Virus record (IMG/VR): IMGVR_UViG_3300025353_000003
Coordinates: 1 to 54,935 of that record
Reading direction: 5' to 3' (one strand)
DNA: 54,935 nucleotides
DNA from: a virus
Lineage: Duplodnaviria > Caudoviricetes
Each line of letters starts with the position of its first letter. Position 1 is the first letter of the stretch. Shown in pieces: positions 4,931 through 14,057 of this stretch. The position numbers and the translations under genes were made by a program. The notes under the pieces were generated by a model that had not been told where the DNA came from, ran no database searches, and saw only the letters and a list, made by a program, of their open reading frames with translations.

Positions 4931-5764
4931 TTACCAGCCGTATCTGTCTGCACAGATTGGACCGATGCCACGTTCAACTGAGACTGGATCACTTAACGTG
5001 CGAGCACATACTGCGCATGATCCATATTTCTTCCCGTATGCGATTGCTGCACTGGCGGGATCACTAGCTACTGCAATAATGCGACCTTGAACCTCGTCAG
5101 TGCAATCCCGAGAGCCAAAGAACTTACCACGTAAAACTTTACCTAGGTATTGGTCACCTTCCTTAACGTATAACGCGCCTGCGTTCTGTCCTGAGGCAGG
5201 AGCAGGTGAAAAGGTAAATGTATCAAGACGCAACTTTGGACGTTGAATACCAGCAGACTGCGCTTTATTGAATGCGACCTCGATTGCTTCTACGGATACT
5301 GACGGAGCTAATGAGTCTTTCTCTGCCTTCTGCGCGGTGCGAGCCAACTCTTTAGCCACGCAATTTTGAACGGCAGCGAGTTGGCGTTCTGTTAGCGAGC
5401 CATACTTCTTGACTGAGTCATACATTGACCGTGCAAATTCAAAAGTGGCATGAGACTTCATCATCCAGTTGTACTCAGCTGGGAACTCTTTTTGAAAGTT
5501 ATGTACGGCTGTGGCTTCTTTGCGCTCTTTAGATTGACTATAAGAGTTGCGATTCTTTTCACGCTCAGTTGCGCTGGTTTTGAATTCATGAAAACCAACA
5601 CCCTTACAACTAAAGCATTGGCCAGTAAAGCTTCTGTTACTGGCGACCCAGATTCCTGTGCCAGCGCAATTTTTGCACTTTTCTTTGTAGAGGGTTACTG
5701 CTGAGTCAGACACTTTAGCGCTGACTGCAATTTCGTCTTCAGCTAGATCATATAGGCTTTGCAT
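4931..5764 (-). CDS. zinc-finger protein with C-terminal DUF6011 domain
   Basis: CKNCAGTG and CFSCKGVG (DnaJ-like CxxCxGxG); C-terminal CAVCARTLSDPVSVERGIGPICA. Confidence 0.75.
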   Translation of the reverse strand: MQSLYDLAEDEIAVSAKVSDSAVTLYKEKCKNCAGTGIWVASNRSFTGQCFSCKGVGFHEFKTSATEREKNRNSYSQSKERKEATAVHNFQKEFPAEYNWMMKSHATFEFARSMYDSVKKYGSLTERQLAAVQNCVAKELARTAQKAEKDSLAPSVSVEAIEVAFNKAQSAGIQRPKLRLDTFTFSPAPASGQNAGALYVKEGDQYLGKVLRGKFFGSRDCTDEVQGRIIAVASDPASAAIAYGKKYGSCAVCARTLSDPVSVERGIGPICADRYGW

Positions 5765-5811
5765 AATTATTTCCTTTATTGAATCGGTTATTGGGTGAAA
5801 CTATACAATGA

Positions 5812-5840
5812 ATTAAACCTCAAAAGCTTCATGAAGGCAA
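5812..5840 (-). promoter_or_regulatory. sigma70-like early promoter
   Basis: TTGCCT-17 nt-TTTAAT on the - strand; near-duplicate of the promoter at 4882-4910. Confidence 0.7.
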
Positions 5841-5891
5841 CATTTATTTTTGAGTGAAAACCCTTAGTTAGAAAAAGTGAGTGATAATAGG

Positions 5892-6022
5892 GGTGTTCGG
5901 TGACTTGACCCATTTTAGTTCTACCCACTCCTCCTCGCAGAGTTGACCGAACATCATTTGGGACCTAGTCCCACGAGTGGGTAGACCTAAAATGTGTTGA
6001 GTATTTATAACTTAATGCGAGG
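5892..6022 (+). promoter_or_regulatory. putative structured cis-regulatory RNA leader of the primase-helicase gene
   Basis: Pairings 5892-5901/5946-5955, 5903-5930/5975-6002, hairpin 5959-5973, and CCTCGCA (5933-5939) complementary to TGCGAGG over the RBS (6016-6022). Confidence 0.6.
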
Positions 6023-6033
6023 TAATAACGTAA

Positions 6034-8130
6034 ATGGCTAACAAATTCGGTTTCGATCTGAATGATTATAACCCAGAAGAAATAAACAAGAGCAAAGGCT
6101 TTACCTCTAGCTCTGTAGTCCCATATAAAATGAGAAATGCTAAGCGTTGGTTACTCTGGCGCTCAGAGAGGTATAGTGAACATGAACTTCATAGTACTCG
6201 TAAAGTTCCGTATTATGCTGACGGTACAGTTAGGCGCGGTACTCTTGATACCATTGAGGATTTAAGACGGCTAGAGACTTATGACGTAGCCGTTCAAATG
6301 CTAAGCAGAGGGAACTTCACTGGCTTGGGCTTTGCGCTGGGTCGGGATGGTGAAGGCTATTGGCAGGGCATTGACCTTGATGATATTTCACAGCATAAAA
6401 ATGATTCCCTAGCAGATAAATTACCTAGTTATGTTGAGCTGAGTCCGAGTGGCGACGGAGTACATGCCATTGGGTATGGTGAATACTTCCGCGGTAAGAA
6501 TCGCAGTTCTGAAAAAGGTTGGGAATATTACTCCCGTGCTAAGTACTTTACTTTTACAGGAAACAAGTTTAAGAATGATGCTGAGATTGTTGACCTTAAA
6601 CCTTTCATCAAAGAATATATTGATAGAGATATATCAGATGATAGAACAGAAAACAAAGCCTCATTAACCCATTTAATACTCAGTGAAAGTCAAATAGACG
6701 ATATTGAACGCGCACTCAAGTATATTGACCCAGATTGTTCTTATGATACATGGCTTCATATAGGTTTTAGCCTCGCTAGAGTGCCTGACGGATTTAGGTT
6801 ATTTTCTGAATGGTCTAAGCGGTCAGCAGGTAAGTTATGTAAAGTAGCCTCTGATGCTGATCTTGCAGATCAATGGAATGATATTCATGCTAACTCGAGA
6901 GGTGAGATTAGCCTTGGAACTTTATATCATCATGCTTCAAACAATCCTAAATTTATTGCTACCGAAGTAAGCACAACAGTAAAAGAACTCAGCGCGGTTA
7001 GCAATGATCCCTTAATCATTGACATCCAGCAGTGGATTGGTAAGATGATTGCGCCAGATTGGGTTGTTGATAACTTTATTGGAGAAGGTGTGCGGAGTAT
7101 TGCAGGTTCTCAAGGTAAAGGTAAAACGTCAATCATTGCTCCCTTATGCGCTAACGTGGCGCACCTTGTTACTCCTAACTTCTTGACACCACGGCATAGG
7201 CGCGTTGTGTTCTACTTTACTGAGGATACGAATCAAGTAAATAAGATGGTCATGGGAATGAAGATTCATCAAAGCAGGGAGTTCAGCAGTTCAGAAGAAA
7301 AAGAAGCTGAATGGCGTAAGTACTTTCAAATCAAACTCACGCAGAGGTATAAACCAAATCAAATAAAGAAGTTAGCCGAGGTAGTAAAAGACTATAACAC
7401 TGAGCAAGACGGAAAGAGCATACCTGCCCTGGTAGTATTTGACACTCAAGCTGCTAGTCTAGACGTAGAAGATGAGAATAATAATGCGGAACTCTCAAAG
7501 TTTATTAGTGAGATTAAGTTGCACTTCTGGGAGGCTTATCGTATTCCCGTATTGATTGTGACGCACATAACGAAGTCATCCGCTGATTTAGATAATTATA
7601 AAGACCTAACGTCACGTGGAGCTGGTTCGGTAGCTGGAGATTGCCACGGAACAATGGGGATTGTACATCCTCAAGGTATGACAGGAAGACTACTCGGCAA
7701 TGGTAAAGACCGCGACGGTGCAATCATTCAAGAGGTAAGAGTTGAAATCAAAAGACACGTTATTGAAGGTTTAACTCCTTACGGAGAGCCTATTGATATT
7801 GATTACTTTACTACCGAATACTTTGAGTCCAACCCTGATGATAGAGCTGAAGCAAAAGCAGAAGTAGCCACTAATGAGTTCATAGAGAGGGTTTACCGAG
7901 CTGTTCATCTTTTGAATGAAGAGAATCATATTGTAACTCTTGAATTACTCTCTAGACAGAAGCTGGGTGGGGCGCGGGATAGAGTTAAACAGGTTCTGGC
8001 TGACCTTGAAAGAATGGGTAGAATCTTTTCAACTAATCCTAAGGATCTTTCAAAAGATCAACGGACTGAACTGGGACTCGGTAATAATTCAGGTCTTTAC
8101 TATAAAGTAATGGGGACTTACCTTGGTTAA
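6034..8130 (+). CDS. primase-helicase (AEP primase + PriCT-2 + RepA/AAA_25-type helicase)
   Basis: GIDLDD, YVELSPSGDGVH and EYYSRAKYFTFTG AEP motifs; LKYIDPDCSYDTWLHIGFSL PriCT-2; Walker A GSQGKGKT, Walker B LVVFDT. Confidence 0.85.
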   Translation: MANKFGFDLNDYNPEEINKSKGFTSSSVVPYKMRNAKRWLLWRSERYSEHELHSTRKVPYYADGTVRRGTLDTIEDLRRLETYDVAVQMLSRGNFTGLGFALGRDGEGYWQGIDLDDISQHKNDSLADKLPSYVELSPSGDGVHAIGYGEYFRGKNRSSEKGWEYYSRAKYFTFTGNKFKNDAEIVDLKPFIKEYIDRDISDDRTENKASLTHLILSESQIDDIERALKYIDPDCSYDTWLHIGFSLARVPDGFRLFSEWSKRSAGKLCKVASDADLADQWNDIHANSRGEISLGTLYHHASNNPKFIATEVSTTVKELSAVSNDPLIIDIQQWIGKMIAPDWVVDNFIGEGVRSIAGSQGKGKTSIIAPLCANVAHLVTPNFLTPRHRRVVFYFTEDTNQVNKMVMGMKIHQSREFSSSEEKEAEWRKYFQIKLTQRYKPNQIKKLAEVVKDYNTEQDGKSIPALVVFDTQAASLDVEDENNNAELSKFISEIKLHFWEAYRIPVLIVTHITKSSADLDNYKDLTSRGAGSVAGDCHGTMGIVHPQGMTGRLLGNGKDRDGAIIQEVRVEIKRHVIEGLTPYGEPIDIDYFTTEYFESNPDDRAEAKAEVATNEFIERVYRAVHLLNEENHIVTLELLSRQKLGGARDRVKQVLADLERMGRIFSTNPKDLSKDQRTELGLGNNSGLYYKVMGTYLG

Positions 8131-8993: not shown

Positions 8994-10426
8994 TGCCCAC
9001 TGCTCTTGATAAAATCGTAGAGGATAAACTAAAGAACGCGCCAGACTTAAACTGCTTACCCGCTCCAATGCGAGCAGCGATTAAGGCAAGACTCACATGG
9101 CTATCAATTGCAAATGCTCATCAGATTAAGCCTGCTGGGGATTGGTGGTCAATCTGGTTACTGCTCGCTGGGCGCGGTGCAGGGAAAACGAGAACGGCAT
9201 CAGAGGAGATCTGGTGGGAGGCATGGACTGAGCCTGAGACAAGATGGCTCGTATCCGCGCCCACCAGTGCAGACGTGCGAGACACCTGCTTTGAGGGTGA
9301 GTCTGGAATACTGAACGTCATACCGCAGGAGATCATCGCTCCCAACGGATATAAATCATCACTCAATGAATTGACGCTAATCAACGGATCAATCATCAAA
9401 GGTATTCCCGCCAGTGAGCCAGGACGCTTCCGTGGTCCGCAGTTTCATGGTGGCTGGTTAGATGAACTCGCAGCATGGGATTACCTTGATGAGTCATGGG
9501 ATATGATTCAGTTCGGGATGCGCCTTGGGCAACGTCCAATCCTCATCTGCACGACTACTCCAAAGCCCAAGCCACTCATTGTTGACCTAGTAAACCGAGA
9601 CGGAGATGACGTTGCGTACGTTACGGCATCAACCTATGATAACATTGATAACCTCGCTCCGACGTTCAAGAAGCAGATCCTCCAATACGAGGGTACAAAC
9701 ATCGGTCGTCAAGAGTTATATGCCGAGCTGATTGACCCTGAGGAGTCAGGCATCATCAAGCGAGACTGGTTCAAGCTCTGGCCAGCTAGTAAGCCCCTGC
9801 CTCAGTTTCAATACGTCATTCAATCGTACGACTGCGCCACAAGCGACAAAACCGCGAACGACCCGACTGCCTGCGTAGTATTAGGAATCTTTAAACCTAG
9901 CCCAGACAAGCCAATGTCCGCGATGGTTATCGACTGCTGGACCGAACACATGCAGTATCCCGAGCTGAGACCGAGGGTCGTTGAGGAGTATGCCTCAATC
10001 TATGGCGATGACGACGAATGGGGCAACGGCAAAAAGGTAGACATGGTTCTGATTGAGGATAAGTCCGCAGGCATCTCATTGATTCAGGACTTACAGCGTG
10101 CAGGTCTACCAATCCGTCCGTACAATCCTGGCATGGCGGATAAGACCCAACGCTTAAACATCGTCAGTCCAATCATCGCAAAGGGTCTGGTATATCTACC
10201 CGAGTCCACGGAGAAGAAGGGACATCCGAGGAGTTGGTGTGGTCCATTCCTCAATCAACTTTGTGCATTCCCTGAGGTTCGGCATGATGACCTTGTTGAC
10301 GCTACCAGTCAAGCTTTGAGGTATTTGAGGGATTCTGGTTGGCTCGTCACAGATTTCATTTATAATGACGAGGATAAATACGTTGATGAAACCAAACCAC
10401 GCAGGGTAAATCCATATGCCGCTTAA
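8993..10426 (+). CDS. terL: terminase large subunit
   Basis: Walker A AGRGAGKT, Walker B GWLDELAAW, coupling motif TTTPKP, nuclease motifs QSYDCA, IEDKSAG, HDDLVDATSQAL. Confidence 0.95.
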   Translation: MPTALDKIVEDKLKNAPDLNCLPAPMRAAIKARLTWLSIANAHQIKPAGDWWSIWLLLAGRGAGKTRTASEEIWWEAWTEPETRWLVSAPTSADVRDTCFEGESGILNVIPQEIIAPNGYKSSLNELTLINGSIIKGIPASEPGRFRGPQFHGGWLDELAAWDYLDESWDMIQFGMRLGQRPILICTTTPKPKPLIVDLVNRDGDDVAYVTASTYDNIDNLAPTFKKQILQYEGTNIGRQELYAELIDPEESGIIKRDWFKLWPASKPLPQFQYVIQSYDCATSDKTANDPTACVVLGIFKPSPDKPMSAMVIDCWTEHMQYPELRPRVVEEYASIYGDDDEWGNGKKVDMVLIEDKSAGISLIQDLQRAGLPIRPYNPGMADKTQRLNIVSPIIAKGLVYLPESTEKKGHPRSWCGPFLNQLCAFPEVRHDDLVDATSQALRYLRDSGWLVTDFIYNDEDKYVDETKPRRVNPYAA

Positions 10427-13400
10427 CGAGTGGGACGATAACAGCATTCCCTTACCTGAGTCGCAGGACTTGATGCGTTATGAATTAGCTCGTAAAGGTT
10501 CAATGCCTTTGCAATCAAATGGATCCGATGTACCGTTGTTACCATCCGAGGCAGCAGGTCAGTATGTACCAGTCCCAATCGAGAAACCCCAGCCGTATTC
10601 CACAGCGACAAATATCTATCAAGCAGCAGCCGATAGGTTAGGCTTGACTGCAGTGCCACAGGCTCTCATGGCAGCTATGAGTAGCTTCCCCTCTGAGGTA
10701 GCGAAGGGCATCGGTCAACCTGAGGCAAGTGCTGTCCTACAGTATCAACCGACTTCCCGCTCTGCCAATCAAATGCTTCAAGCGTATGATCAATTTCATC
10801 CCCTAGGTAGTAATATGGGAGTTGGTCCTCTGCCTGAGACATGGCAACTGCCCGCCTCACTCACAGCTAATGACCTGAGAGTAGTCGCTAAGCAGAACCT
10901 AGAACGAATTAGAGAAGCTGCACGGATTAAAGAAGATTTTCAAAATGCTCAATCAGGTATACGTCGTGAGAGCAACCTCGGAGGTAACACCTACGGAGCG
11001 AACATTCAAAGTGCAGCCGAAGGAGTGGGCGACGTACTAGCGAGTCGGCAAGCTGCAGGTAAATCAGCAATCCCAGGAATACCAGACATAATCCCCGAGA
11101 CCAATATGTACGCTGTGCGTCCAGTGGGTCAGGGTCAATACATTGAGCCGACAGACCTGCCTAATGGAACTTCAGCACTCGGTAAGGTTTACGGAAACCT
11201 CGCTAATGAGATGGCTTATGGTCTTAAATTTGAGCCTGATGCCGAATCTAGATTTCAAGATTACTATAATCACTTTTTGATGACCACTCCTGAACTTGAG
11301 CAGGCATGGCAGGACTTTGCTTCTAATAAAATCTCCGAGATGTATCCCGATGCGCCAGATGCACCCGCTGCTCGTAGTGCATTTAACATGGCATTCCCAG
11401 GAGAAGTGGGCAGTGCTGAGCGATTGAAAATGATAGAAGAATTCAGAAGCTCTCCCGAGGCAATCGAGGCTGTTCAAAAAAGAGCGGATTACCGTCAAGC
11501 CCTACATGATGAACTCTACCTACTCAAAAATGCACCACGTAAAGGATTGACAGAGTCAGAACGTGAGGTAAAGAATGAAGAAGTTGAAAAGGTAGAAAAG
11601 TTACTCTCTAAAACAAAAAGTGCCCACCTACCCACTCAAGCTGAAATAGATGAACGCATCAAGGCGATTCATCAATACCTCGGTAAAGAATTTAAGACTG
11701 ACCTTACAAAGTGGGTTGGTACGGGACAAGGTCCAATGATGGAACTCGCTAAGCGAGGTATCACTCACCTGCCAGCTAGTGAGATATTGGGTCTTAGGGT
11801 TAATGACTCTACAAGTGCTGCCTCACAAATATTAAGAGAACGAAGAACCGAAGCAGGTATGCCGAGTGAAGGATTAGCGGGACAACTCCTCAATACAAAA
11901 AACGCTGAGATTAAAACCGCTACCGATGCATTCAATAAGCTCAACAGCCGTAAGAACCAGTTGGCTATGCAGAGCCAAGCGGAACTCCCTGACACTGACC
12001 CCACTGCTAACCCAATCCTCGGTGCTGAATACAAAGAGTTGACTAACCAGATTGACAATGCTTTTCGTGCAAAGTCTAAGTTAGAAAAAGAAGCTGAGAA
12101 CCTCAAAGTAGCTCAGGCATATGAGGCATTAAATGATTTAGCATATCAACCAACCACTGCTGGACGTATGCGTAATATGCCATATGGTCAACAACAGTTC
12201 TACCCTAATCTATTTAACAAAAAAGAGGGAGAGTTTATTACTCCCAATGAAGCACCAATGTTCAATATAGAAGGCGAGCCAATTAGAGACCTCGGGTATT
12301 CACAATCTGCAAAAGCTTATACCCACGCAATCATGAATGGTGAGATTCCGTTAGACCCAAAAACTGGTAAACCTTCAGTCAAATTAGATAAGTTCATTGA
12401 AGAACATACCGCACCGCGTATACGTCAAGAAGAACGCGAGCGCATAGCTGAACGTGATAAACTCGGTAACCTCAATAAGTACATGAAGCAGGTAGTAGAT
12501 CAACTCCCAGCTGAATCTACATTCGGGAATACAAAGGCTCTTGAAATTACAGACGTAATGCCATGGGAAGATATCCGTCGTCATGTGAGCCTCGCTGGTC
12601 TTGTATTTGACCATTGCATTGCACAAAGCAACGCACCCCATCCAGGAATCAATCCATTCACAGGTCAAAAGTATACACACTCGTACCCTGTTGACCCTGT
12701 GACTGGTAAAGCTCGTCTGAATCCAGGAGAAGATGAGTCAGTTAACCATGCTAGCTCATACATGACGGGTACACGAGCAGGTGAAAAGCGTATTACAGTA
12801 CTCATGGATAAAGAGTCGGGAATGCCCGTCGGTGCAATTGAGTTTAGAGATCAAAGAGACGGCAAATTTAACCTCGGATATATGCAGGCTCATAAAACCG
12901 ACTCAATTAGCAGACCATATAGAGAAGCATTTAAGGATTACCTAAATGCGCGCTCAGATATTATCCGCGGAGCTGGCAATGACCTTTCTAAGCATGACAT
13001 AATTGATACCTCGGTAGCTGGTTGGGAGTCTAAAGCATCTCAAACCTTAGGTATCCCGAAAGCTGATATAGTTCAATTAAACCTACCGCGCTTTGTTTCT
13101 AAAGAAGATATCAAAAATGCAGCTCCCGCGCCCAGTGCTACCCTTGCTAATGTTGACACTCATGCTAGCCTAATTGCTAGAAAGAATCAGTTAGTAGATC
13201 ATATTGAAGAATACAGACATGACCTACGTGATGCCCAACGGGATGACCCAACGGATCATGAAGAACATGAACGCATTCAAGGAATGATGGATGAGGCTCG
13301 CAATCAGATTGCAGACGTTAATTCTCGCTTAGAGAATATATCCAATAATGTACGTAATGCTCCAGCTATGCCAATTGACAGATATAATCGAGATCGCATA

Positions 13401-14057
13401 CCTACTCCAAGGGATATAGCTGATGCATATCTTGATGCTCAATATACACGTAGAATTAATGGAGACTTAGCACCAAACAATCCTCCACCTGAAGGTCATA
13501 AAAAAGGTGGCATCATTCGCATGAACCAAGGTGGTACTCCCAATCCAGAAGATACCTACGGTACATTCTCTTACACTCCAGACTATTATGCTGAAGTTGC
13601 GGATAATATAAGCCCTGAAGGTCGCAGTGGGGGTTATAATGATGCAGCGCGTCATGTTCTTGCAGCTGCTGATTTGACTCGTAGAATTGAAAGTGTACCG
13701 TTAATTGGTAAATACATTGCTGACCCTATAGTGAATGCTGCTGGGCATGTACATGAATATGCCAATTATTTAGAGAATATTGGTGGTAAAAAGCCTCAAA
13801 CCATCGAGGACATGCAACAAGATCTATATAATAATGCAGTAGGTAGGAAGTTAGGTGCAGGCTCTAAAAGTTTTCAAGAAATCATAGACAGAACTCCAGC
13901 CGTGCTAGACGTAGCCCCTTACCGAAAAGAAGAAGGTAAAGTATTTGTGCGTAATCCAAATGAAGTAAAAACACCCTATAAACCATTTGGTGCATTTAAT
14001 GAGGGTGGTTCGGTTAATACTGATGACATGCGTTACGAATTATTAAGGAAGAACTAA
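10416..14057 (+). CDS. large multidomain (polyvalent-like) virion-associated protein
   Basis: 1213 aa; coiled coils; PcfJ-like segment (DHCIAQ...ITVLMDKESGMPVGAIEF); C-terminal DAARH...HE...DLYNNAVGR domain; KKGG motifs. Confidence 0.6.
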   Translation: MPLNEWDDNSIPLPESQDLMRYELARKGSMPLQSNGSDVPLLPSEAAGQYVPVPIEKPQPYSTATNIYQAAADRLGLTAVPQALMAAMSSFPSEVAKGIGQPEASAVLQYQPTSRSANQMLQAYDQFHPLGSNMGVGPLPETWQLPASLTANDLRVVAKQNLERIREAARIKEDFQNAQSGIRRESNLGGNTYGANIQSAAEGVGDVLASRQAAGKSAIPGIPDIIPETNMYAVRPVGQGQYIEPTDLPNGTSALGKVYGNLANEMAYGLKFEPDAESRFQDYYNHFLMTTPELEQAWQDFASNKISEMYPDAPDAPAARSAFNMAFPGEVGSAERLKMIEEFRSSPEAIEAVQKRADYRQALHDELYLLKNAPRKGLTESEREVKNEEVEKVEKLLSKTKSAHLPTQAEIDERIKAIHQYLGKEFKTDLTKWVGTGQGPMMELAKRGITHLPASEILGLRVNDSTSAASQILRERRTEAGMPSEGLAGQLLNTKNAEIKTATDAFNKLNSRKNQLAMQSQAELPDTDPTANPILGAEYKELTNQIDNAFRAKSKLEKEAENLKVAQAYEALNDLAYQPTTAGRMRNMPYGQQQFYPNLFNKKEGEFITPNEAPMFNIEGEPIRDLGYSQSAKAYTHAIMNGEIPLDPKTGKPSVKLDKFIEEHTAPRIRQEERERIAERDKLGNLNKYMKQVVDQLPAESTFGNTKALEITDVMPWEDIRRHVSLAGLVFDHCIAQSNAPHPGINPFTGQKYTHSYPVDPVTGKARLNPGEDESVNHASSYMTGTRAGEKRITVLMDKESGMPVGAIEFRDQRDGKFNLGYMQAHKTDSISRPYREAFKDYLNARSDIIRGAGNDLSKHDIIDTSVAGWESKASQTLGIPKADIVQLNLPRFVSKEDIKNAAPAPSATLANVDTHASLIARKNQLVDHIEEYRHDLRDAQRDDPTDHEEHERIQGMMDEARNQIADVNSRLENISNNVRNAPAMPIDRYNRDRIPTPRDIADAYLDAQYTRRINGDLAPNNPPPEGHKKGGIIRMNQGGTPNPEDTYGTFSYTPDYYAEVADNISPEGRSGGYNDAARHVLAAADLTRRIESVPLIGKYIADPIVNAAGHVHEYANYLENIGGKKPQTIEDMQQDLYNNAVGRKLGAGSKSFQEIIDRTPAVLDVAPYRKEEGKVFVRNPNEVKTPYKPFGAFNEGGSVNTDDMRYELLRKN

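Follow-up and report, generated by a model that had tools for sequence, protein, structure and literature searches.

A conserved leader RNA with crossing helices at the ribosome-binding site of a primase-helicase gene in uncultured freshwater phages: a candidate translational switch

The viral record IMGVR_UViG_3300025353_000003 (Duplodnaviria; Caudoviricetes; about 98% complete) was analyzed over its whole length of 54,935 bases, hereafter the window; the sequencing runs in which this phage occurs are freshwater or lake metagenomes, and no RNA run was among those listed. Between positions 5765 and 6033 lies a divergent intergenic region bounded by a leftward gene (4931-5764) and by a rightward gene (6034-8130, + strand) encoding a primase-helicase of 698 amino acids. 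The latter matches the Pfam domains PriCT_2 (7.5e-13) and AAA_25 (3.6e-14) as well as PHROG DNA primase/helicase families, and its N-terminus is kept in homologs. The subject of this analysis is the stretch of about 140 nucleotides (nt) preceding its start codon, which sequence comparison identifies as a previously uncatalogued folded leader RNA and which most likely controls the amount of replication protein made. Since the primase-helicase gene precedes, on the same strand, those of the large terminase (8993) and of the portal (14057), as assigned with PHROG, this leader heads a long rightward operon that also carries structural genes.

The leader is built from three long-range helices, A, B and C, whose arms follow each other on the + strand in the order A5'-B5'-C5'-A3'-hairpin-B3'-C3'. 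Helix A joins a 5' arm at 5892-5901 (GGTGTTCGGT) to a 3' arm at 5946-5955 (ACCGAACATC) by nine Watson-Crick pairs and one G·U pair, and a repeat search returns it as a perfect 8-nt core; probably only about 5895-5901 of the 5' arm is transcribed, which would leave 7 base pairs (bp). In folds of nascent prefixes, it is prolonged by a 5-bp extension (5902-5906 with 5940-5944, G5945 being bulged) that has bases in common with the base of helix B. Helix B (5903-5930/5975-6002) covers 28 positions, with 24 Watson-Crick pairs, two G·U pairs (5906-5999 and 5907-5998) and two mismatches (C5910·U5995 and U5919·C5986), and was independently recovered by the repeat search with 86% complementarity. The unpaired position formed by U5919 opposite C5986 divides it into an outer block (5903-5918/5987-6002; 15 pairs plus the C5910·U5995 mismatch), which is the site of most compensatory changes, and an inner block (5920-5930/5975-5985) of 11 bp with a duplex energy of −18.8 kcal/mol, the proposed toggle helix. 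Its 3' arm consists of 5975-5985 (inner), C5986 (unpaired) and 5987-6002 (outer) and includes an invariant GACCUAA. Two hairpins complete the fold: P3 (5931-5942), present in the minimum-energy fold, in which CUC (5931-5933) and GAG (5940-5942) enclose a 6-nt loop, and P4 (5959-5973), which reads UGGGAC-CUA-GUCCCA.

The third helix reaches the translation initiation site. Its 5' arm (5933-5945), separated by a 0-nt gap from the 3' arm of helix A, comprises a core (5933-5939) directed against the Shine-Dalgarno (SD) sequence and an extension, GAGUUG (5940-5945). The core, CCTCGCA in the DNA, is exactly complementary to TGCGAGG (6016-6022), the 3' arm of helix C, which includes the SD sequence GAGG (6019-6022). 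This is the sole SD-like run before the ATG at 6034 and lies 11 nt upstream of it. An A/U-rich linker (6003-6015) separates helix B from this arm and contains both UAACUU (6008-6013) and TATAAC (6006-6011). GAGUUG has two alternative partners, the helix A extension or UAACUU, and the pairing of 5940-5945 with 6008-6013 brings helix C to a length of 13 bp, in the window as in two related leaders (L002 and L004). A preliminary description of this DNA had reported the three helices and the hairpin P4, and had noted that an A-B-A'-B' order implies either a pseudoknot or mutual exclusion. Direct reading and the repeat search bear out the helices at these coordinates, and they do cross, such that they cannot all form in full in one molecule. 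That earlier picture, sound for the helices, included neither the division of helix B into two blocks, nor a U-rich tract which follows it, nor the position of the gene at the head of the rightward operon.

Taken alone, the window gives only a modest fold signal, moderately unusual. As RNA, the + strand of 5885-6045 folds to −46.9 kcal/mol (z = −2.78; 3 of 200 shuffles were as good) and the − strand to −45.6 (z = −2.56); folded as DNA, the + strand gives z = −2.76 against shuffles. The duplex energy of helix C is reached by 9 of 1000 dinucleotide shuffles and that of helix A by 70 of 1000. What places the leader above chance is comparative: 16 distinct homologous leaders conserve it, with compensatory changes.

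These relatives were gathered from viral, metagenome and genome contigs using the primase protein and the profiles A1 and A4; the 330 nt upstream of each primase start were inspected and identical leaders were collapsed. The resulting 16 leaders (the window, equal to L034, and L001, L002, L004, L010, L016, L018, L019, L024, L037, L050, L051, L052, L053, L055 and L059) lie upstream of orthologous primases with 37-100% amino acid identity, homologs in protein collections being 37-78% identical. They represent few clades, and several are closely related. In five loci with more distant primases (L027, L028, L029, L057 and L058), nothing similar was found. A covariance model made from 12 window-type leaders was run on 35 sources, with E-values that are rough, and matched only primase leaders, on the + strand, in 14 of them; at E up to 1, L001 and L010 escaped it, and it returned no second copy in the window and none in 18 loci of distant primases. 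This pattern of matches confines the element to one clade of freshwater phages. Among GenBank phages, a blastn search with 5700-6400 gave no match, and tblastn with the primase gave partial matches of at most 32% identity in the 15 best records, with 0 of 154 records covering 80% of the protein; there is thus no cultured relative for comparison. Viral contigs were also scanned with two 14-nt conserved motifs and, among the matches listed, eight candidates inspected after filtering and, in a further set, the best 12 of 116 were all chance occurrences in coding sequence, which added no member; a second protein-profile scan of viral contigs returned the same records and no added leader.

The preliminary description had proposed an RNA not described before, and the Rfam searches are consistent with this. 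Over 5500-6400, at E up to 10, six weak matches were obtained, the best at 20 bits against a gathering score of 94, with no ribozyme, no hepatitis delta virus (HDV)-type family and no C4 RNA among them; at the gathering score, there was no match in the window and five related loci. Similarly, no structured leader upstream of phage primase genes is described in the titles and opening abstract lines of the papers that the literature searches listed, and the motif lists of PMC5737381, PMC8040213 and PMC2864571 might hold a related motif. A leader that sequesters the SD sequence by alternative folds is an already known kind of mechanism. What appears to be new is the architecture, in which three non-overlapping helices cross, a toggle of one turn sits inside a long helix and one arm is 5'-terminal.

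Helix B is the core of the minimum-energy fold in all 16 leaders. In an alignment of the 12 window-type sequences, RNAalifold predicts 24 of its pairs, 12 of which are changed on both sides. When A, B and P3 are taken together as a pseudoknotted structure, 89.5% of the cells are paired against 82.6% for column shuffles (0 of 500 reach the observed value), and sliding the partners by 1-3 columns lowers pairing to 26-45%. Thirteen pairs in this alignment carry double changes, 12 in helix B and one in helix A. The unpaired position of helix B (columns 42-121 of alignment A3) is unpaired in 12 of 12 sequences. Helix B has at least 22 bp in all 16 leaders, the inner block measuring 11-12 bp in 14 of them and the outer block 9-15 bp, and its middle (UUAG.../...CCUAA) is conserved as sequence, beyond what pairing requires. 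The hairpins are looser: P3 is kept in 10 of the 12 window-type leaders, with GCC/GGC in L019 and AACC/GGUU in L050 at the same place, and P4 varies in sequence and length, other hairpin sequences occupying its place in relatives and in DNA contigs of other runs.

For helices A and C, the arms are wholly different between clades and complementarity is nevertheless retained. Helix A, GUGUUCGGU/ACCGAACAU in the window, reads UGCGUGG/CCACGCA in L001 and GCAUGGU/ACCAUGC in L018 and L019. Single pairs are swapped from U-A to C-G in L053 and from G-C to A-U in L024; in four sequences of the 12-leader alignment each arm is shorter by one base, and L002, L004 and L016 show a paired deletion of 1 bp. 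The helix A extension also covaries, A5903-U5943 of the window becoming G-C in L051, and it is predicted in the nascent-prefix folds of relatives. In all 16 leaders, helix C covers the SD sequence, and at least eight clades do so with sequences of their own: CCUCGCA/UGCGAGG in the window, UCCACUAAA/UUUAGUGGA in L016, CUCCACCA/UGGUGGAG in L055, CUCCGC/GCGGAG in L024 and L051, ACCUACUA/UAGUAGGU in L050, GUAUUCCGCUU/AAGCGGAAUAU in L001, UCUCUAGU/ACUAGAGA in L018 and CCAUCAUUG/CAAUGGUGG in L019. The anti-SD/SD pairing put forward in the preliminary description is thus present throughout these leaders, and compensatory change in homologs, on which that description had made its proposal depend, maintains A, B and C alike.

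An alignment-independent swap test gave the same picture. In this test, the 5' segment of each leader was paired with the 3' segment of another clade, using eight representatives and 20,000 derangements. The cognate sums were −125.2 for A (mean −89.3; best derangement −114.8), −292.2 for B (mean −122.2) and −114.9 for C (mean −72.3; best derangement −97.7). For none of the three helices did any of the 20,000 derangements reach the cognate value, and the result was unchanged with 11 representatives.

The relative placement of the arms is largely kept as well. Between the 5' arm of helix A and helix B there are 0-1 nt in all 16 leaders, and in 13 of them the 3' arm of helix A is contiguous with, or overlapped by, the 5' arm of helix C. 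In every leader, the two arms of helix C are separated by 70-90 nt, and its 3' arm, which holds the sole SD-like purine run, reaches to within 2-11 nt of the start codon. In leaders of the window type, the loop of P3 contains the 5' arm of helix C, whereas in the L001 type this arm follows P3 on its 3' side, a difference which indicates that helix C is retained by function and not by strict positional homology. The helices and their covariation, the coverage of the SD sequence and the adjacency of the arms, like the strand and the energies given below, are direct results of computation.

The strand on which this structure is selected can be read from its wobble pairs. Across the leaders, G·U pairs account for 26 of the 390 pairs of helix B when it is read as + strand and for 1 of 359 when it is read as − strand, in agreement with the preliminary claim that its G-U pairs favor a + strand RNA; in 12 of 16 leaders, the + strand form of the helix is also the more stable. 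This one-sidedness designates the + strand RNA, in the sense of the primase, as the selected molecule; helices A and C do not discriminate between strands. A -10-like hexamer, GATAAT, is found at 5883-5888 (+) and, by reading, TATAAT, GATAAT, CATAAT, CAAAAT or GAAAAT stands 4-7 nt before the helix A 5' arm in all leader types. The transcript would then start at about 5894-5896, which is consistent with the start upstream of 5940 that the preliminary description supposed and makes helix A a 7-bp helix of the very 5' end of the RNA. A sigma-70 scan calls an upstream TTGAAA-17-TAAAAT in L016. Farther upstream, a conserved box, GTGAAAACCC (5854-5863, +), is found in the same or similar form (GTGAAAACCC, GGGGAAACCC, GGGGATACCC) before the -10 box of related leaders and may be an operator, an activator site or part of the promoter. 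It was rejected as a phage promoter motif repeated along the genome, there being one exact copy and six matches with at most one mismatch, against 3.0 expected and with 11 of 100 shuffles equaling it.

On the basis of these data, we propose with moderate confidence that the leader (about 5895-6033) is a cis-acting RNA switch gating ribosome access to the SD sequence. In the open state, helix B would form over its full 28 bp, capped by P3 and P4, leaving the 5' end, the anti-SD segment and the SD sequence single-stranded and allowing translation; the computed minimum-energy nested fold corresponds to this state, with the SD sequence unpaired. In the closed state, helix A (5'-terminal bases with 5946-5955) and helix C (5933-5939, possibly to 5945, with 6016-6022) would together bury the SD sequence, and pairing in helix C would block initiation. 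Because the inner arms of A and C are contiguous on one strand, the two helices can stack into a helix of about 20 bp, and this stack would sit at the base of the outer block of B as a three-way junction, that is, a pseudoknot. Full closure of A, B and C in one molecule was rejected on geometric grounds, as a 1-nt linker could not span a 28-bp helix. The closed state would accordingly require the inner block of B (5920-5930/5975-5985) to be unzipped, its freed strands serving as linkers. We infer this three-way-junction geometry, and any trigger, from the arrangement of the arms. No ligand core of a known riboswitch class was found with Rfam.

Energetically, the proposed switch would give up about −19 kcal/mol of inner B and gain about −21 to −37 kcal/mol from A and C together, loop penalties excluded. 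In the window, A amounts to −16.4 and C to −15.8 kcal/mol, set against −18.8 for inner B, and in 16 of 16 leaders the summed duplex energy of outer B, A and C is equal to or below that of full B. We read the two states as roughly balanced, the balance being uncertain since such sums omit loop and pseudoknot costs. In nascent-prefix folds, the extended A hairpin precedes the availability of the B 3' arm; the full leader then folds into B (−45.6 kcal/mol in the window vs −32.7 when the B 5' arm is barred). As extended A is the earliest structure that can form, the leader is likely set co-transcriptionally, after which it would relax or be biased by some factor. Whether it times the synthesis of the replication protein or mediates its autoregulation, as suggested in the preliminary description, is pure conjecture.

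Several points weigh against such a switch. The minimum-energy fold leaves the SD sequence free, and ViennaRNA cannot score the pseudoknotted closed state. Among the 12 closest leaders, helix A has only one pair changed on both sides. Single-sequence shuffles are weak, 6-457 of 1000 being as good for C and 0-278 of 1000 for A, as expected for helices of 7-13 bp. Stacking of A on C is not universal, because the C 5' and A 3' arms are 6-8 nt apart in three clades (L055, L024 and L059). Apart from their extensions, A, B and C have no bases in common, which is unusual for a switch and also fits their coexistence in trans. The invariant GACCUAA and the U-rich tract after B are left unexplained. Upstream of A, the sigma-70 scan returns no promoter for the window, L051 or L053, and the 5' end, the full-length leader and any regulation are deduced from sequence. 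Finally, TAGACC-N17-TATAAC stands inside the leader itself (5983-5988 and 6006-6011), where a possible internal promoter would bypass the element. The pattern T[AG]GACC-N17/18-TA[TC]AA[CT] occurs in most window-type leaders, and the scan recognizes it as a promoter in L016 alone (TGGACC-18-TACAAT); in the window, the -10 is without its final T. Such an internal promoter could explain the invariant GACCUAA. A different internal promoter called in L002, TTGACC-16-TATATT, was set aside, its -10 being in the variable P4 and not conserved in the window.

A first alternative, which we regard as unlikely yet worth serious attention, is that the leader is an attenuator. Helix B and the U-rich tract behind it would form an intrinsic terminator soon after the promoter, with extended A as the anti-terminator, and the terminated leaders of about 115 nt, carrying the anti-SD segment at their apex, would repress in trans. 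At least 5 U among the first 8 nt after B are found in 11 of 16 leaders, despite an overall U content of 0.25-0.33, and the A extension takes five basal bases of the B 5' arm, next to this tract, and covaries. The gene heads a long rightward operon, a frequent place for terminators and antitermination in phages, and in the B state the anti-SD segment is single-stranded, with an opening energy of 0.83 kcal/mol. The tract is, however, weak in the window (AUUUAUAA, 4 U) and weaker in L053 and L001 (3 U), and B is a branched stem of 25-30 bp rather than a compact GC-rich hairpin. A terminator scan was blank at the leader in the window, L002, L053 and L016; this carries no weight, since the loop limit of 3-8 nt used in the scan excludes B. 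The U/A-rich stretch before the SD sequence equally resembles an unstructured landing site for the ribosome. Moreover, an attenuator leaves unexplained both the coverage by helix C of an SD sequence linked to it in cis and the presence of A at the extreme 5' end.

Phages offer parallels for such terminated or antisense leaders. The late promoter of lambda gives a short terminated transcript. In P1 and P7 (c4) and in P4 (CI), antisense RNAs encoded in the leader and complementary to a downstream ribosome-binding site are excised by RNase P and act in trans, the P4 system controlling an operon that holds a primase-helicase gene. The leader described here resembles c4 and CI in carrying, on the same transcript, an antisense segment upstream of its target ribosome-binding site, with a specificity that shifts by covariation of the partners. 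Its fold is different, and a C4-type RNA was rejected as a family assignment, as the Rfam C4 model gives no match either at E up to 10 or at the gathering score; the same result counts against the attenuator.

Processing by RNase III, to which phage early mRNAs are often subject, is another explanation, and one we consider rather improbable. Cutting helix B would part the apex, with the anti-SD segment and the A 3' arm, from the mRNA bearing the SD sequence, and would either free translation or let the apex dock again through A and C. In this scheme, the unpaired position of B would set the cleavage pattern. The length of B in every leader exceeds what a terminator or a simple switch requires, and the constancy of its unpaired position and the conserved sequence of its middle point the same way. 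Length and mismatch are, however, equally explained by a switch made of two blocks, and a protein site or the possible internal promoter might account for the sequence conservation instead.

It is also conceivable, and in our estimation improbable, that the arms pair between molecules. The 5' tail and the SD tail of one leader would bind the apex of another, forming a two-RNA three-way junction and head-to-tail dimers or chains. All three helices would then coexist between molecules, and the leader would improbably, by RNA alone, be a sensor of gene dosage, translation of the primase falling as leader RNA rises with genome copies. Once B is formed, both tails lie side by side at its base, and the continuous strand that would pair with them is at the apex, out of reach; since A, B and C share no bases, their simultaneous formation would need either pairing in trans or a half-opened B. 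With B formed, the four arms are accessible (0.8-1.6 kcal/mol for the cores), their duplexes are strong (−13.8 kcal/mol for A, −11.1 to −15.1 for C) and they are adjacent, as described above. Leaders also appear to move as exchangeable cassettes, as expected of determinants of specificity. A precedent can be found in the packaging RNA of phi29, in which complementary 4-nt loops pair between molecules to form a ring on the packaging motor; there too, covarying segments are out of intramolecular reach, the arms of the present leader differing in being 7-13 nt long and in that one of them is the SD sequence. Pairing in trans is nonetheless not required, because a closed state in cis, with inner B unzipped, satisfies these constraints as well, at a competitive energy. 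Phage mosaics commonly exchange cassettes for other reasons, and covariation does not distinguish cis from trans.

The cassettes themselves were seen in several places. In run X11, a 215-nt DNA contig has the promoter region and the gene start of the window, with 128 other letters replacing the 130 of 5903-6032, and the leader thus appears to have been exchanged between matching flanks. The leaders of L004 (1610-1760) and L037 (1216-1366) differ by one base, their primases being 70% and 49% identical to that of the window, and L001 and L010 likewise have near-identical leaders before diverged primases; these comparisons place a recombination boundary near the start of the primase gene. Such exchange suggests selection for specificity.

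That the inverted repeats act as DNA, as a replication origin, a cruciform or an operator, is very improbable. They stand in a divergent control region next to a primase-helicase gene, the + strand folds as DNA with a z of −2.76 and the − strand as RNA almost as well as the + strand, and the middle of B is conserved in sequence. Neither duplex DNA nor a symmetric protein site would, however, produce wobbles that are 26 to 1 in favor of one strand, and in 16 of 16 leaders one helix falls on the downstream SD sequence. Compensating 28-bp arms placed 44 bp apart are unlike the evolution of operators or iterons, and no iteron family was found beyond short repeats in two copies.

A self-cleaving ribozyme of the HDV type, with A as P1, inner B as P2, CUC/GAG as P3 and the hairpin as P4, has next to no probability. 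The P3 loop has a CUCCUCGC-like sequence, as in the genomic HDV ribozyme. The HDV-like fold is described as a nested double pseudoknot in which P1 crosses P2, with P3 and P4 inside, a catalytic C in J4/2 and a two-pair P1.1 (PMC13635239). The leader resembles it in the crossing order P1-P2-P3-P3'-P1'-P4-P2', in having a short helix at the 5' end (P1 is 7 bp long in several leaders), in a P3 of 3 bp whose loop is C-rich and in a P4 that varies. The nested order A5'-B5'-P3-A3'-P4-B3' is found in 16 of 16 leaders and holds only when inner B alone is taken as P2, and the covarying 15 bp of outer B would need to be unpaired. C occupies J4/2 only in leaders of the window type, the others having A, UA, UU, U or no base there, P1.1 is not evident, since by eye no complementary dinucleotides are conserved between the P3 loop and the AUCAU/AA after helix A, and a P1 located at the transcription start would leave nothing to cleave off. 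With no HDV-type family in Rfam at E up to 10, an HDV-like ribozyme was rejected as a family assignment. Chance pairing is ruled out by conservation and covariation.

Returning to the two-state switch, its closest mechanistic precedent would be the leader of the MS2 maturation gene. An upstream sequence pairs there with the SD sequence over a long distance, a metastable 5' hairpin delays this pairing, the equilibrium fold is inhibitory and the outcome is set by folding kinetics (PMC4615214). The two leaders have in common a long-distance SD pairing, intervening hairpins, a 5' hairpin that forms first and conservation by covariation. They differ in that the equilibrium fold of MS2 is closed, whereas the computed equilibrium of the phage leader (full B) leaves the SD sequence free. 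In addition, MS2 is without a 28-bp competitor helix, it has an RNA genome, in contrast to the mRNA of a DNA phage, and there is no sequence relationship.

The preliminary description had instead likened the leader to the rep genes of IncI/IncB plasmids. In the leader of ColIb-P9 (IncI-alpha/IncB), a pseudoknot pairs beside the SD sequence (4 nt) and activates translation, a leader peptide being required and an antisense RNA opposing it (PMC4705826). What is common to this system (ColIb-P9 repZ and pMU720 repA) is that long-range pairing in the leader of a replication gene governs initiation (PMC4705826). This shared theme holds and the analogy fails in detail, given that the phage pairing covers the SD sequence itself, there is no conserved upstream open reading frame (ORF) and an antisense promoter-like site was seen in 1 of 5 regions. 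IncI-type control was therefore rejected as a family assignment, with helix C on the SD sequence in all 16 leaders and no conserved leader peptide. Small ORFs do occur in the 16 leaders; they vary in start, frame and end, and in several leaders no such ORF terminates close to the start codon. A conserved leader peptide was accordingly rejected. In the window, a nine-codon ORF begins at an ATG (6015) overlapping the 3' arm of helix C, reads through the start of the primase gene in a different frame and ends at 6039-6041. The equivalent ATG in L002, L004 and L037 opens a 4-codon ORF that stops at or overlaps the primase ATG, and this ORF is not kept in the other clades.

In T4, the protein of gene 32 represses its own mRNA; the pseudoknot of its leader nucleates protein binding and is itself unpaired with the SD sequence, and an A/U-rich stretch runs up to the ribosome-binding site. 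The T4-type gene 32 leader is presented as a pseudoknot-bearing autogenous translational operator (PMC535899). It resembles the present leader in having a structured region with a 5' pseudoknot and then an A/U-rich stretch leading to the ribosome-binding site of a replication protein; the difference is that the SD sequence would be paired in the present leader and is not paired by the pseudoknot of gene 32.

Control of replication proteins by leader RNAs is well worked out in plasmids and in a few model phages, and almost unknown in uncultured lake phages. This naturally occurring design is compact: within about 140 nt, it unites three separately covarying long-range helices that cannot all be closed together, with an apparent toggle of one turn and with the ribosome-binding site as one of the arms. 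With nothing in Rfam 15 matching it, it is a candidate new RNA family for databases. If the two-state model is true, it would provide a system for the energetics of pseudoknots and three-way junctions and for their co-transcriptional setting, and insight into how the first gene of a long rightward operon is timed or limited. If cassette exchange reflects selection for specificity, RNA structure would be tied to competition between related phages, and should pairing occur in trans, the fast-changing arms of A and C would define which co-infecting relatives cross-repress.

Further features were noted around the leader. An antisense promoter-like site within it was called in L016 only, among five regions scanned, and none in the window, L051, L002 and L053. 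The L016 site (1478-1507, −; TTGACA-18-TATTGT, 10 of 12 matches) starts from the first primase codons and is directed back through the leader. In L051 (385-409, −), a terminator-like hairpin with a T run lies just upstream of helix A and overlaps the spacer of the presumed leader promoter; it could be a palindromic operator or mark where an antisense transcript ends. Small palindromes stand at the equivalent place in L052, L059 and L053.

Elsewhere in the window, the leftward genes at 46-53 kb encode, by PHROG assignment, a DNA polymerase, a single-stranded DNA-binding protein, an annealing protein, an exonuclease, a resolvase and a thymidylate synthase. On the rightward side, the large terminase and the portal flank an ORF of 1213 amino acids (10416-14057), for which PHROG gives no match at 1e-5. 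The divergent neighbor of the primase-helicase gene (4931-5764, −) ends in a DUF6011 domain (1.1e-13) and is assigned to phrog_4046 (1.8e-88), a family of unknown function. Its start is 130 nt from helix A, and the control region is therefore probably common to both genes. Between these divergent genes, short direct repeats (TTGGGTGAAA/TTGAGTGAAA/TGAGTGATAA) occur at 5788-5800, 5847-5859, 5851-5860 and 5878-5887, and may be candidate sites for a regulator of the divergent promoters.

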